Shown: positions 3,119 through 61,747 of the stretch, piece by piece
Layout: every line of letters starts with the position of its first letter
Position numbering within the stretch: the stretch's first letter is position 1
NCBI GenBank assembly: GCA_054600435.1
Contig: BAAIJX010000009.1
Span: 1 to 64,000 of the forward strand
Length of the DNA: 64,000 nucleotides
Direction: 5' to 3'
From: Neophaeotheca triangularis
Lineage: Eukaryota
Translations under genes and position numbers: made by a program
Notes under the pieces: model-generated
The model's database searches: none
What the model saw: the letters and a program-made list of their open reading frames with translations, nothing else
Told to the model about the DNA's origin: nothing

Positions 3119-3859
3119 CTGTTACGCACGACAGGGAGGATTTCCATTTGGAAGTGAATATACTAGGTACCTTACCTATCTAGTACTAGTGGAGGGACAG
3201 GGGTGTCGTCGATGGCTCGGGTGGTACGGGTGCACGGGCTCACGATATGCGTCAGGGACCGGCGCGGACTTGCCCTGGACTTGCGGGTGCAGTGCAGTGC
3301 AGTGCAGTGCAGGTGGTGATGATGATCTGGTGTGAGAAGAGGTACTACTCGTACTGTAGTGTGAGTGGGTGAGACAGCTGTGAGAGCTTCCCAATACCCG
3401 TCCTCCAACTTTTCTCTCTCTTCTTGTCTTTTTCTACTACTACCACTACTACTACTACATTCACATTCACATTCACATTCACATGCTTGACCGCATTTCT
3501 CAACACACACTACCTAATTAAGTTATTACTCAACCTCTTGCGCACCCAAGCTTCGGAACCTTTAGACATGCACGGCTAGACATCCACACTTCCACACTAG
3601 CCCTAGTGTAAGATGCGACCACGGTAGCGTAGCTTTCACTACTCTTTGAATCAAGCACACACGCGCGCCTCTTCAACACACACACGACACACTACCATCG
3701 TACGCTATACGCCACACACGCCATACACGACATACCCCATACATACGCACACGACCTCGACCTAATCCCTCAAACAACCCCCTCCAACAACTCCCTCCAA
3801 CATACACTTGAGACAGACGCCCCATCCGTGTCTTGCGTCGGTCGCGTGGACGTTCCGTT

Positions 3860-55912: not shown

Positions 55913-57120
55913 ATGCCTTCTGCTCGCTTTAATCTCCCGCCTTTCACACGGGGCCTACTATTCGCCCTCCTTTTCCTCTCCGCCGTCAATGCCGTCCTCC
56001 GCTATCGCGTCTGGGCCGCAACCAACACGCCCAGTTCCAGCTACCTCTCACATCCCAACCTCGCGGTCCCATGGCTCGTTCTAGTCCCCGCGAGATCCTG
56101 GGTTTTCCCCTGGACCGTCGGCACCGCAGCCCTAATCGAGCAAAACATCGTAAGCCTAGGCATCAGCGCCGTAGTCGTCTGGTTCGGTGGGAAATACCTC
56201 GAACGTGCCTGGGGTAGCAGAGAATTCGGCGTCTTTGTGCTGTTTGTAACCATGATCCCCAATCTTCTAACCTTCTCCCTCTACGCACTCTGGCATAACC
56301 TTCTAGCCAGCAAACCAGCCTAGTAAGCACCCTCCCCCCCTTTCGACCCAGACTCCTCTCCACGAGCAGCCTACTAACACTCCCCTACAGCCCAACCCCC
56401 ATTAACGGCCTCCTCCCCCTCCACGCCGCCTTCCTCGTAGCCCTCAAGCAGCTCGTCCCCGAACACACCGTCTCTCTCTTCAGCAACAGCGTGCGCATCC
56501 GCCTCAAACACTTCCCAGCAATCTTCCTACTCGCCAACGTGCTCTCGGGCCCCATCCTCGGCACCGACACAGCCGTGTGGCTCTCGCTCTTCGGCTTTTT
56601 CACCGGCTGGCTCTACCTCCGCTTCTACCGCGTGACGGAACTGTCCTCGACGGCCGCGACGGGAGGCGAGGGCGATAGCGTCAAAATGCGCGGCGACGCG
56701 AGCGATACTTTTGCTTTTGTCGCGTTTTGGCCCGAGGTCGTGCAGCCTTTTATGCGGCCTGTGTGTGATGCGGTATATGAGATCATGGTGCAGGTGCGGG
56801 TGTGTACGCCGTTTTCAAGCGAGGCGGTCGAGGCGGGGAATGAGAATGCGGCTACGAGGTCCCAGGGAGGGTTGCCAACTTTAGGTGGTGGAGGAGGTGG
56901 TGGCGGTGGAGGAGCTAAGAGGGCGGAGGCAGAGAGGAGGAGGGCGCTCGCTCTTAAGGCACTGGAGCAGAGGCTGAATGCTGGTGCTGGCGCCGGGGCT
57001 GGAGGCCAGAAGGCGCCGCAAGCTGCCACTGCGGACACGTCTTCCAATGGAGATGCGCAAGAGACGCAGGCGGGTGCTGCCGAGAGCGCTGAAGGCGAGG
57101 CAAAGGGAAATCAGGACTAA
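55913..57120 (+). CDS. TMEM115/DUF1751 rhomboid-like membrane protein; intron 56323-56390
   Basis: FGGKYLERAWGSREF, LVALKQLVPEHTV, WLYLRFY, RGDASDTFAFVAFWP, AERRRALALKALEQRL. Confidence 0.92.
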
Positions 57121-57931
57121 ACCAAGGGGCAAAGGTCTTCGCTATGCGCGCATGATACCATACTTGTTTTGTTGTAAGAGCTGTTCAGGAACCACTGTAC
57201 GTTCAAGCCAGCACATCGCAATAATCGCGTCTCCAGCGGAATCGTTCGGCCAAATGAGCCCAATTAAGCGGCTACATGTACGGGTTCAACTCATCAAATC
57301 CCTCCCAAAAACCACCGCAAAACCAAAACCAAAACAATACAGAAGCCAGACCCAGCACACCAGCACATAAAATCACAAAAATAATGGCATTTTCCCATCC
57401 TATACGGTATCGACGGTGTTACAAAAAGACCCCTCCTCTTCCTTAACACCAACCAACCAAACAACCGACCAACCAACCCACCCACCCCATCAACCATCCC
57501 ACGCCCACGCCCACCAAAAAGTCCGCCGCGCGAAGACACAAAACGCCGTCTTGACCCCAGCCGGCATTACGAACTACTTGTAGAGAGCCTTCCCGTGTGT
57601 CTGGACTCGTCCAACGGGAAAGTAAACGTCGCGTCTGAGAACGCGCGGCAAGAAAGCAGAAGCGAGACCATCGGAAGCGTGATCATCTCTCAACGCCGCG
57701 CTCGTGGAACAGTTTTGGAACGGACGCGTCCGAGTGGGAGGGGTGTATTGAAGAGGAAGCAGCACGCCGGCACGCGTTGGCAGAGTAGGTGCGGCCACTC
57801 CGATGGGCAAAAACGCCTTGGGACGCCCAGCAACGTCGCAACAAATCAGAATATCCAAGACTGTCACCCGCCCGACTTTTTCATTCCGATCCCGTCCAAT
57901 TATACATGCTTTTTTTTTTCCTTCCCCAATA

Positions 57932-60900
57932 CTAAGCGGTAGGCTTCCCCTTCTTGCCCATTCTCGGACTCGGCTTAACGCGGTTCTGCGGGCCCCCCTG
58001 AGGCTGGCCCTGTGCGTTGCCCATGTCTCCGCCCCCTTCGTCCCCTTCCAGCTTGACAGTGCTCCGTCTCCTCTTGTTGTTGTTGTTGACTTGCGGGCTC
58101 GTGTTTGCGCTCGCCGCGGAGGAGTTGGTGCCTTGTTGGCTATGTTGCAATTGCATCGGGGGCGCCATGAGCGGCATGTGAGGCGATGGCGTGCCGGAAT
58201 TGGGATTGGGGTTGCCGCCTGGTGCGAGGTTCGAGCCGACGTGGGGGGAGCCGTTGATGTTACTGTTGGGGAGCTGAGTGTTGGGGAAAGAGGGGGAGGA
58301 GAATTGGCCTTGTCGCTGGTTCGGGTTGCTGGAGGGAGGGCCACCTTGCATACCATTGGGCGGGAGCAGGATCTGTGGGTTGCCGTCCGCTTGCTGTTGT
58401 TGCTGCTGCTGTTGCTGCTGATGGCCCATGACGCCGCCTTGAGTGTCGTATAGCGTGACCAGAGCTTCCATGGCTTGGTCGGGCCGCATGTTCGGGTTGT
58501 CGCGAGCAAAGAAGATCGAGTCGGACATGACGTTGAAGGTCTCGGCAACCTACGGAGCCCAGTCAGCCGTGTTACTGAACCAATCTGGGAACTCTGTACT
58601 CATGTCCATGCTGTCCATGTCCATGCCCATGTCCAAATTCATGTCCAAGCCGGCAGAAGGCAGTCCGACTTCTTCCGACGGCGCAGGTACTGGCATGGGC
58701 ATTGGAAGCGCAGCCTGCGTGTTGGGCATAGACATGGGTGCTTGCGTGGAAGCAGCAGCGGGAGAAGGAGCTTGTGGAGCTTGTGGAGCTTGTGCGGGTG
58801 CGGATACGGGTGCGGGTGATTTAGGGTCGCATACCTCGAGGAACTCCTGGACCCTTTGTGTGATTCCCATGGACGTTATGGGCGCCTTTGGGAAGTGGTC
58901 GATGGTGAGACTGGCGAGCTGGTCCTGGAGTTTCTGCTGCGCTTTGGGAACGTTCTTCTTGTTCATCTTGGGGCTCTTCGTATTGGCCGTCGGGGGTGAC
59001 CAGTTGCTCAGCACTCTTTCAATCTCAGATCGTGATATCTTCTCTTCTATGCTGGATGTGCGGAACTCTAGGACCTCTATCATGTCCGAAGCTGGGGGAA
59101 AGTGCACACTTAAAGACCCTGTCATCTCCAGTGCAACGCCTTGAGGGTATGTGATGGTGAATAGCGCAGTTGAGCACATGACCTGATGGCGGCCAAAAGG
59201 CAACGGATTGTCTTGAACGTTCTCTGTGTGCAATCTAATGGAGATCGCTCCACTCTCGAAGAAAGTCCAAAAGTATCGTGCGAGATGGTGGTGCTTGATC
59301 TCGAACTGCTTGGAACGCTTCTCGTCGCCGTCCAGCAGGTGGTGCAGAAATCGTCCATCGGGGCTTGCAAAATGTCGGTCCACGAAACTATTCCATTGCT
59401 CAATGTCCTTGCCACTGGTCGAATTGTACTGACTAAGCTGGTCGCCGAAGAGCATCAACTTGAGAATGAATGCACCAGGAGGCTGCTGAACCTGTTGCTG
59501 AACCTGCTGTTGCTGTTGCTGCTGCGCCTGCTGCTGCTGCTGCTGTTGCTGGGCCATTTGCATTCGTTGTATGTTCTGGTTGTTCTGCTGCTGTTGTTGC
59601 TGCCTGTGCTGCTGCATAAACGCCATGCGCATTTGCTGCTGCTGCTGCTGCTGCTGAGGTGTCAAGCTGTTTTGCTGCTGTTGCGGTGTCATGGCCTGCT
59701 GCTGCTGTCCAGAATGCTGGTTCATTTGGGGCCCTTGAGAATGTTGTTGCTGGGGTGTGCCTTGCTGGCTGCCCTGTGAAGGGTGCTGTTGGCCATTTTG
59801 ACCCTGTTCATGAGGATTCGCCATTCTTGATTGGGGCCGCATCTGCCCAGGAGCGCCGGACTGGCCTTGCTGATTGGGACCCCCTGGATGGCTTTGGTTG
59901 GACTGCTGTGAGTTGGCCTGCTGCATGGCGAGCTGCTGCTGAAGTGCTTGCTGCTGCTGTTGGTGCTGCTGGCTTTGATGTTGCTGTTGCCGTTGCTGTT
60001 GTTGCAACTGCATCTGCTGTTGCATGAGATGCGGTGGGAGCTGCACTCCAGGTCCTCCGGCGTGAAAGTTGGGGTTGTTCTGGAACTGCTGCATCTGCTG
60101 CGCATTCATCATGTTGGGGTTCTGCATACCCATCATACCATTTTGTGCCATCTGTTGCCTTTGCTGCTGCTGCATTCGTAGTTGTTGCATCTGCAAGGCG
60201 TGTTGCTGCTGTGGATTTCCCTGCACTTGATATTGCGAAAACAACTCGTTAGCTAATGGTCTAGTACAGCGGTGATTCGTAGTCAAGCCAGCATCACGAA
60301 GAAATGCATCAAATCGCGTGCGCATGCGCAGTCTCCCCGCATCTTCAGTCATGCCCGCAATCTCCCAGCGTGTCCCTTGGATGCTGGACCACCAGAGGCT
60401 GAGAACGCAAGCACCGCCGTAATTCCTAACTGCGTCCATTCCTGATCGCTTCGATTGCTTCTTGCCAGTGGCGGAGCTCCAACCCTTCGGCGAGATAATC
60501 TTGCTGCATGACTGAAATGCGCGCGCCTGACCCTGGCTAGATGGAATCGGGACGGACACGCACCCAAGTCGCGTAGAGGCTTTGGTGGACATGAAGCGGG
60601 TCGCGAAGCGCGCGAGCTGACGTCGCGCAGTGCGAGTTTCAAGACGCAACTGCGATAGGATAAGAAGGAAAGGGTAAACTTACTTTGTGCCATTTGTTGT
60701 TGCTGTTGCATCGCCATTGCCGCTTGTGGATTCATATGGCTCAGCGCCTGCGGGTTGGGAGTGCCCCCGGCCATGCTCTGCCCACCCATGTTCTGTGCCG
60801 GCATTCCACCCATAGCTCCGCTTTGCTGCTGAGGATGTTGCCCGCCCATGCCTTGAGGACCCATGCCATTGGCACCAGGCTGCATGCCCATCATTGCTCC

Positions 60901-61038
60901 AGCTTGGGTGACGTGCGGACCGCCGGGTCCTGAAGCGCCAGGGTGCATCTGCATTTGTTGCGGCATCTGATTCGGAGTCGGGGCCATTCCAGGGTGGCCA
61001 TGTGGCATTCCTGGCTGGGGTTGGTAGGTCGTGGCCAT
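57932..61038 (-). CDS. MFG1: Gln-rich LIM-domain-binding (LDB/SEUSS-like) transcriptional co-regulator, Mfg1/PtaB type; introns 60226-60683 and 58550-58834
   Basis: Poly-Q/M N-terminus. LDB-type core WNSFVDRHF..KQFEI..LARYFWTFFESG..IEVLEF; GITQRVQEFLE-VAETFNVMS after splicing; C-terminal SPQVNNNNKRRRST basic motif. Confidence 0.85.
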
Positions 61039-61228
61039 GATAGACGCAGCAAGTCGCGAAAGAAGTCGTCGGTCGGGCTTATGTCAGCGATGCATAGGTC
61101 AGGCGGCGTGGGCAACCTAAGGCAGGACAAGACAGGGCAAGGCAAGGCAAGGCGAGACGGGAAGTGTGGCACGCGTGATGAGCGGTCCCAAGCGTTCGTG
61201 CCGTCCAGCAGCGCAGACGGTAGAGGGC

Positions 61229-61261
<33 letters not shown>

Positions 61262-61747
61262 TCAGGTACGGACGAATCCGGGGGCTGTACTGGGTAATGG
61301 ATACTAGGGAGTCGTTGAGGAGTGGGGGGGGGAGAGAAGGGAGGGCTGGCCAAATAGACAGACCGACGGCGCATACACAGTGACTGTCGCAAAAGAAGCG
61401 CTTGGTATTGGACAAGTGAGGAGGGACGGCGGGTAGGTAAGTAAGGTAGGTAGGTAGGTATAATGAAGAACGAACCCAAGACGAGAGTCGTCCCTCTATC
61501 GCAGCTTGGTGAGGGGAGAGTGGAGGGTAAGGTAAGGTAATGGGCGCGGAGAGCGAAGCCACTTGCGACAACGCGCTCGATGCTCTCGACTCTCGAGAAA
61601 GAGCTGGATTCGCCCGAGGTTTGGGCGAGATAACACACTCTCACGGCACGGTTTCAGACGGACATGGACATACTACTAGTACATACATATTGGCGGAGCT
61701 TGTAGCTTGGCAAGTTAAAAGTAAGAGCGTGTTTGTCCGAAGTAGAT

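Follow-up and report, generated by a model that had tools for sequence, protein, structure and literature searches.

A coding-like 285-nucleotide intron and a possible intron-retention isoform in a LIM-domain-binding co-regulator gene of Neophaeotheca triangularis

In Saccharomyces cerevisiae, splicing of the 3'-proximal intron of FES1 (isoforms Fes1S and Fes1L) adds a short basic exon that serves as a nuclear localization signal, and the unspliced mRNA ends within the intron and gives a non-nuclear isoform (passages in PMC7491326). The same passages describe PTC7, another S. cerevisiae gene, whose unspliced mRNA is translated; the intron-encoded peptide changes the localization of the protein, and related yeasts have kept the frame of the intron open (PMC7491326). 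In Yarrowia lipolytica, retained introns almost always create premature stop codons that feed nonsense-mediated decay (NMD), and the branch point and the acceptor TAG supply some of these stops (passages in PMC2911113). Here we describe intron 2 of a minus-strand gene from Neophaeotheca triangularis, which lies in a stretch of 64,000 nucleotides (nt) that we call the window (GenBank assembly GCA_054600435.1, contig BAAIJX010000009.1, positions 1 to 64,000 of the forward strand). The gene encodes a putative transcriptional co-regulator of the LIM-domain-binding family, and its second intron is 285 nt long, continues the reading frame of the preceding exon without a stop until its own final codon, and resembles coding sequence in composition and periodicity. 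We propose, with as much doubt as confidence, that retention of this intron yields a translated and selected isoform in this lineage.

Within this family, PtaB and Mfg1 are partners of SomA/Flo8, with which they govern adhesion and the formation of biofilms and filaments in yeasts and moulds (passages in PMC4631450). The window gene is like Mfg1 of S. cerevisiae and Candida albicans, PtaB of Aspergillus, and Adn1 of Schizosaccharomyces pombe in that it has a full LIM_bind domain and a Gln-rich N-terminal half. A full-text literature search for work that links PtaB, Mfg1 or Adn1 to alternative splicing, intron retention or isoforms found none. Metazoans have LDB1/CLIM splice forms that lack the LIM-interaction domain and acquire an alternative C-terminus via RNA processing; the fungal proteins differ in that they have no identified LIM-interaction domain.

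By analogy, FES1 offers the nearest mechanism to the retention isoform proposed here, and the exon that is spliced on at our locus likewise carries basic stretches (KRRRST, GKKGK). The FES1 intron supplies four codons together with a stop and a poly(A) site and has been conserved for more than 300 Myr, according to the passages in PMC7491326, whereas the intron of the window gene would add 94 codons and its conservation is seen in one sister lineage only. Translation of the PTC7 intron carries on into the exon that follows; at our locus, by contrast, the stop is the last codon of the intron, and the C-terminus would be replaced rather than extended. The NMD-coupled retention of fungal introns is the null model for intron 2. 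Stop-free introns with a length divisible by three (3n) are under-represented in Yarrowia, as stated in the passages from PMC2911113, and intron 2 departs from that pattern in being 3n, stop-free to its last codon and coding-like. Relative to these known cases, what is unusual is a 94-codon tail whose origin appears to lie inside the intron.

The gene model comprises three exons and two introns (Table 1) and gives a product of 787 amino acids (aa) when spliced and of 676 aa when intron 2 is retained. Exon 2 alone matches the Pfam profile LIM_bind (PF01803) with an E-value of 3.5e-50 over profile positions 1-217 of 242, and the match stops at intron 2. The spliced protein, represented by the public protein P0002, covers the complete profile (1-242; E-value 4e-57; 193.9 bits), while the read-through form reaches 171.2 bits over positions 1-217. 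A profile built from 11 full-length homologues matches the dimerization domains of LDB1/LDB2 (6s9s_A, E-value 2.5e-6; 6tyd_V; 8hib_V; and others; E-values from 2.5e-6 to 2.8e-5), a single-sequence search of the PDB gave no match, and UniRef gives one homologue, P0015, the name 'Adhesion defective protein 1'. Judged by its sequence, then, the gene is of the LDB/PtaB/Mfg1/Adn1 type, an assignment made at the level of the family. The first-pass annotation had proposed an LDB/PtaB/Mfg1-type gene with an intron, and the LIM_bind match and the conserved intron site support it on both counts.

That intron site is shared widely among relatives. The best database match is P0002, listed by NCBI as a hypothetical protein of Neophaeotheca triangularis, which is 99% identical over the aligned part and splices out intron 2 exactly as in the first-pass annotation. 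The exon 3 frame encodes 205 aa, including KRRRST and GKKGK, and intron 2 is phase 0, because the downstream frame starts VAETFNVMSD directly after it. The junction residues (FLE, then x-x-E-T-M/F-N across the splice site) and the whole of exon 3 are conserved in 11/11 full-length homologues. Relatives are encoded at 32 metagenome loci, of which 21 carry an intron at the exact codon boundary of intron 2, five are cDNA-like with a joined junction (L001-L005), and six could not be scored by the motif pair used; the distinct orthologous introns all start with GT and end with AG. Intron 2 has the spliceosomal series of GT, branch point and AG, and the sequence GCTGACTGG at its branch-point motif recurs in the introns of L011 and L012. 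By these comparisons intron 2 is a true spliceosomal intron whose phase-0 site is old and conserved, and its splicing is needed for the conserved protein with its full LIM_bind domain and conserved exon 3.

Frame 0 of intron 2 continues the frame of exon 2 for 94 sense codons, ends in GLDMNLDMGMDMDSMDMSTEFPDWFSNTADWAP, and is closed by the acceptor TAG. The coordinates, signals and translation all confirm the earlier description of a 285-nt, 3n intron (GTATGC...GCTGAC...TAG) that is free of stops until its last three bases. A companion statement, that it is several times longer than most introns, holds against the orthologous introns (51-96 nt) and a neighbouring 68-nt intron at 56323-56390 but fails against intron 1 of the same gene (458 nt), in a comparison that takes in only part of the window's introns. 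The coincidence of acceptor and stop is automatic, because the intron is phase 0, 3n long and ends in TAG. Openness alone is also weak evidence: frame 0 is open in 344/5000 dinucleotide and 242/5000 mononucleotide shuffles of the intron (5-7%), and one antisense frame is fully open as well, the remaining four frames having 1-3 stops each.

Intron 2 frame 0 does, however, have the codon composition and the 3-base periodicity of the exons. In a codon score whose table was built from 12 long open reading frames (ORFs) elsewhere in the window, frame 0 reaches 0.188, and the flanking exons reach 0.194 and 0.193; the five remaining frames of the intron fall between -0.20 and 0.04 (0.040 for the open antisense frame), and intron 1 is near 0 in all frames. 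A score of 0.188 is attained by 0/3000 dinucleotide shuffles, by 0/126 out-of-frame coding windows and by 2/552 frame-windows of ORF-free DNA. A training-free chi-square of 3-base periodicity is 23.7 for intron 2, compared with 25.9 and 24.6 for the flanking exons, a median of 21.1 for coding windows, 4.1 for intron 1, and a maximum of 15.9 among 92 ORF-free windows. Outside the tandem arrays of the intron, frame 0 still scores 0.124 over 60 codons (other frames, -0.17 and -0.08) and the chi-square is 16.5; thus 0/92 ORF-free windows reach the periodicity of intron 2, either whole or outside the arrays.

A relative of the tail exists in one sister lineage. When the 94-aa tail was searched against 1.84 billion representative sequences, three matches were returned, two of them compositional and the third P0040 (E-value 7e-17), an ORF-style prediction of the orthologue that is read through the same long intron. 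Its cluster mate P0046, from a different contig, has an identical tail. Between the window and this lineage, the LDB core is identical at 206/216 residues with no internal gaps, the Gln-rich coding linker at 33/42 with one internal gap, and the intron-encoded tail at 61/79 with six internal gaps, all in frame. On this alignment the divergence of the tail resembles that of the low-complexity linker in the gene's coding part. In the sister lineage the frame stays open over 85 codons and terminates with ...TEYPDWFNS, seven codons before the stop of the window frame.

In a second strain (X2), intron 2 has the same length and one change, at 58765, which read in frame turns Ser to Ala; the exons carry three changes and intron 1 has five single-nucleotide polymorphisms and a 1-nt deletion at 60428, numbers too small for a test. 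Marine metatranscriptome runs X3 and X4 contain 100%-identical exon pieces of the gene at a depth of 3.5-4.3 (window 57900-60051). One X4 contig of 151 nt and depth 2 lies on 58698-58848, spans an unspliced 5' junction with 137 nt of intron 2 and 14 nt of exon 2, and carries the X2 allele at 58765; it does no more than hint at unspliced RNA. The RNA contigs of X3 and X4 leave uncovered both the joint between exons 2 and 3 and the greater part of exon 2, and these runs give no ratio of spliced to retained message. Intron-bin depth at 80% likeness was set aside, since low-complexity look-alikes inflate it. Because the metatranscriptome contigs are 100% identical to the exons and carry the second-strain allele, it seems that this fungus, or else a strain very close to it, transcribes its genes in the marine samples.

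We propose the following course of events. An old intron of about 50-100 nt has grown to 285 nt in this lineage, largely by slippage of 6- and 9-nt units, and the added sequence behaves as if protein-coding in the frame of exon 2. Three arrays, with periods of 6, 9 and 6, account for about 100 of the 285 nt; GACATGAG is present once in the 85-nt orthologous intron of L011, and this may be the unit from which the window's hexamer array grew. Part of the mRNA would stay unspliced and be translated into the 676-aa isoform, which would keep the Gln-rich region and the dimerization core, lose the end of LIM_bind and the conserved basic (nuclear-localization-like) C-terminus, and end in a Pro/Ala-rich linker and an Asp/Met/aromatic tail. 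A meaningful retained frame has indirect support from the in-frame gaps of the sister lineage, the coding-like composition and periodicity, and the single RNA contig. From these we infer export, translation and selection of the unspliced form, and we judge a translated and selected isoform to have about an even chance of being real.

Retention would remove LIM_bind positions 218-242 (the last 25) and everything downstream, including the invariant KRRRS stretch; profile coverage and exon 3 conservation both agree with the original suggestion that the end of the LDB core and the basic KRRRST/GKKGK C-terminus would be replaced. The new end consists of a Pro/Ala-rich linker and a final stretch of 40 residues, among which are 9 Asp/Glu, no Lys/Arg, and 13 Trp/Phe/Tyr/Leu/Met, so the acidic and aromatic character ascribed to the tail is borne out. 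Over its full length the tail contains one Lys and no Arg. An acidic composition with bulky hydrophobic or aromatic residues and no basic ones marks acidic activation domains. The tail would fit such a domain; it would accord just as well with lost nuclear import or with a dominant-negative dimer. In an AlphaFold model of P0002 (11 sequences; mean predicted local confidence, pLDDT, of 51), only the core at residues 483-640 is confident; the junction of E695 and V696 falls inside a predicted helix at 688-712 (pLDDT about 57-64), and intron 2 would, tentatively, interrupt that helix.

If the isoform is real, retention swaps the nuclear-targeting C-terminus of a regulator for a different tail, in a compact and testable case, and a coding sequence was born from repeat growth within an intron. 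We consider improbable the more ambitious version, which takes in the switch inferred in the first-pass annotation: a module without relatives elsewhere was born in the intron by hexamer and nonamer expansion, and regulated retention switches between a nuclear canonical PtaB/Mfg1 and one that lacks the basic C-terminus and has an activation- or export-like tail, thereby tuning the yeast, meristematic and hyphal forms of a polymorphic black yeast. If the retained form is not made, the locus is a warning that long, 3n, repeat-rich introns can mimic coding sequence in composition tests.

The most serious alternative is that the ORF is incidental, a possibility that we rate as substantial though short of an even chance. 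The intron would be efficiently spliced and inflated by slippage; its open frame, in-frame gaps and periodicity would be by-products of 3n repeats and limited divergence, and any unspliced RNA would be noise, either degraded or translated into a useless peptide. The tandem arrays that make up about a third of intron 2 are of a kind that is frequent in ORF-free DNA, and the openness of the shuffles and of the antisense strand fits an incidental frame. Hexamer arrays are common in the part of the window without long ORFs (1-57900; e.g., at 3457, 4404, 4449, 4517, 55533, 55718 and 57318), and this frequency sets the base rate for any argument from in-frame repeats in this genome.

Several further observations weigh against a translated and selected isoform, and those on codon choice, third-position GC and the simulated frame also fit the incidental ORF. 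Arrays with 3n periods give in-frame gaps and periodicity without translation, and by our own count 13/29 arrays in ORF-free window DNA have such periods; the parts of intron 2 outside the annotated arrays may themselves be decayed arrays. It is the amino-acid composition that carries the coding-like score (0.121, reached by 0/5000 shuffles). Synonymous codon choice contributes only 0.020, which 625/5000 shuffles reach and which is uninformative, and third-position GC is 0.55 in intron 2 and 0.65 and 0.75 in the flanking exons. The comparison with the sister lineage is at the protein level only, and the last residues, NTADWAP, and the use of the acceptor TAG as the stop are not conserved in it. 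A neutral simulation with substitutions only, at the fitted divergence of about 0.11 per site, leaves the frame open about half the time. It is on the in-frame gaps that the weight of the sister-lineage comparison falls. The X4 contig reaches just 14 nt into the exon and may derive from pre-mRNA or from DNA carry-over. Lastly, 618 nt separate the retained stop from the normal one downstream, and a stop so far upstream may expose a fungal message to NMD.

The wider phylogenetic picture points the same way. The 21 loci yield 10 distinct orthologous introns, of 51, 53, 56, 58, 60 (three variants), 61, 85 and 96 nt, and all 10 have an in-frame stop within 32 codons. In one of them, the 96-nt intron of L012, the frame is open up to its own acceptor TAG, as in intron 2; in two further loci, L020 and L026, a GTATGC intron reaches a stop at codon 5. 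Of 87 proteins surveyed for tails, 70 have the junction motif, 12 as spliced models and 58 reading into the intron. The latter give 55 distinct tails with a median of 12 aa (all 55), and the 54 outside the sister lineage are 3-41 aa long and unrelated to the 94-codon tail. The long tail is, by these surveys, lineage-specific, because the orthologous introns are short and the tails of the 54 other lineages are short and unrelated; the conserved product is the spliced one. The first-pass annotation had looked to conservation of the open frame in related fungi, and this check finds it in the sister lineage of P0040/P0046 only. Beyond that lineage are short orthologous introns with early stops, the pattern which the annotation itself had set against its proposal.

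Three observations nonetheless count against an incidental ORF. Outside the arrays, both the frame 0 score and the chi-square persist, the latter above that of every one of the 92 ORF-free windows. Intron 1, although longer, shows no such coding signal. And none of the six gaps relative to the sister lineage breaks the frame, whereas the sole intron 1 indel between two strains is of 1 nt.

A regulatory but non-coding retention is unlikely in our view. Here splicing would tune the amount of canonical PtaB, the unspliced RNA would remain nuclear or be destroyed by NMD, and the peptide would be irrelevant. Common fungal donors are GTATGT and GTAAGT, from which GTATGC departs. This slightly off-consensus donor, a length that is 3-5 times that of the orthologues, and the position of the retained stop all suit such a role, as does the feeding of NMD by retained Yarrowia introns via premature stops (passages in PMC2911113). 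It leaves unexplained, however, the coding-like composition and the frame in the sister lineage.

We find it very unlikely that the constraint comes from an embedded element, either an antisense gene or a structured or small RNA. The former would be a plus-strand ORF at 58443-59144, with 233 codons, which runs antisense over intron 2 and parts of exons 2 and 3 and whose frame is open across the whole intron. With a codon score of just 0.040 across the intron, it is probably a composition artefact. An Rfam scan of 57500-61300 returned nothing on the minus strand or inside intron 2 and only two weak plus-strand matches in the Gln-repeat region, far under the gathering scores, and the fold energy of the intron 2 RNA is ordinary (z -0.89; 42/200 shuffles fold equally well).

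An alternative internal donor or acceptor that would add some of the 285 nt, in frame, to the main protein hardly merits consideration: in-frame GT triplets are present (GTATCC, GTACCT, GTCGGA), but their use would put Pro/Ala-rich sequence into FLE-x-x-E-T-M, which is contiguous in 11/11 homologues, and there is no junction evidence among the RNA contigs. An internal 50-nt intron, GTACAG...TAG, was rejected, as it shifts the frame (checked by eye).

Table 1. Positions of the gene parts, splicing signals and repeat arrays of the LIM-domain-binding family gene in the window.
Feature	Position	Strand	Description
Exon 1	60684..61038	-	355 nt; ATG at 61038; Gly/Met/Pro/Gln-rich N-terminus; matches homologues in alignment
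Intron 1	60226..60683	-	458 nt; GTAAGT donor; phase 1; boundaries are those that keep the frame
Exon 2	58835..60225	-	1391 nt; Gln-rich region and LIM_bind core; ends ...QRVQEFLE
Intron 2	58550..58834	-	285 nt; phase 0; frame 0 open for 94 codons up to the acceptor TAG
5' splice site GTATGC	58829..58834	-	Relatives' donors at the same site: GTATGC, GTGTGT, GTGGGT, GTAGAC
Two adjoining tandem arrays	58767..58818	-	Period 9 x 3.1 copies and period 6 x 4.5; encode the Pro/Ala/Gln-rich part
Imperfect hexamer array	58601..58647	-	GACATG (coding strand), 8.3 copies; encodes Asp-Met repeats
Branch-point motif GCTGAC	58562..58567	-	Branch A 13 nt from the 3' end; in frame, Ala-Asp
3' splice site TAG	58550..58552	-	Doubles as the stop codon of the retained reading
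Exon 3	57932..58549	-	618 nt including stop; end of LIM_bind and conserved C-terminus (KRRRST, GKKGK)

Among Teratosphaeriaceae- and Hortaea-like relatives (L011, L012; P0007, P0025, P0045, P0083), the orthologous intron of 70-110 nt reads as an acidic, Trp-containing tail of 22-35 residues that ends near 'ADW' or 'ADEW'. The 'ADW' triplet is the branch point GCTGAC followed by TGG, read in frame. The keeping of the frame from the 5' end to 'ADW' in P0007, P0025, L011 and L012 was not counted, since two of these are gene models that annotators had picked and all four fall into just two closely related pairs.

A further run under the same organism label, X14, has next to none of the gene's words and only a 35-nt Gln-repeat piece at 80% likeness (57900-61100), and it yielded no orthologous intron; its genome seems much more distant than the label implies.

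The public model P0002, at 900 aa, treats part of intron 1 as coding, and the extra stretch is missing in 10/10 other aligned homologues; the model is probably about 110 aa too long as a result of this wrongly coded part. Intron 1 has no coding signal in any frame by either codon score or periodicity. It is also long in two closer relatives (L008:3382-3757, about 376 nt; L010:3349-3804, about 456 nt), and a three-way alignment of these with window positions 60226-60683 contains no conserved block. From this alignment the length of intron 1 seems to be kept across relatives while its sequence is not. An apparent in-frame likeness at the 3' end of intron 1 was not borne out in the alignment with the two relatives, and we think that it reflects the branch-point and acceptor signals.

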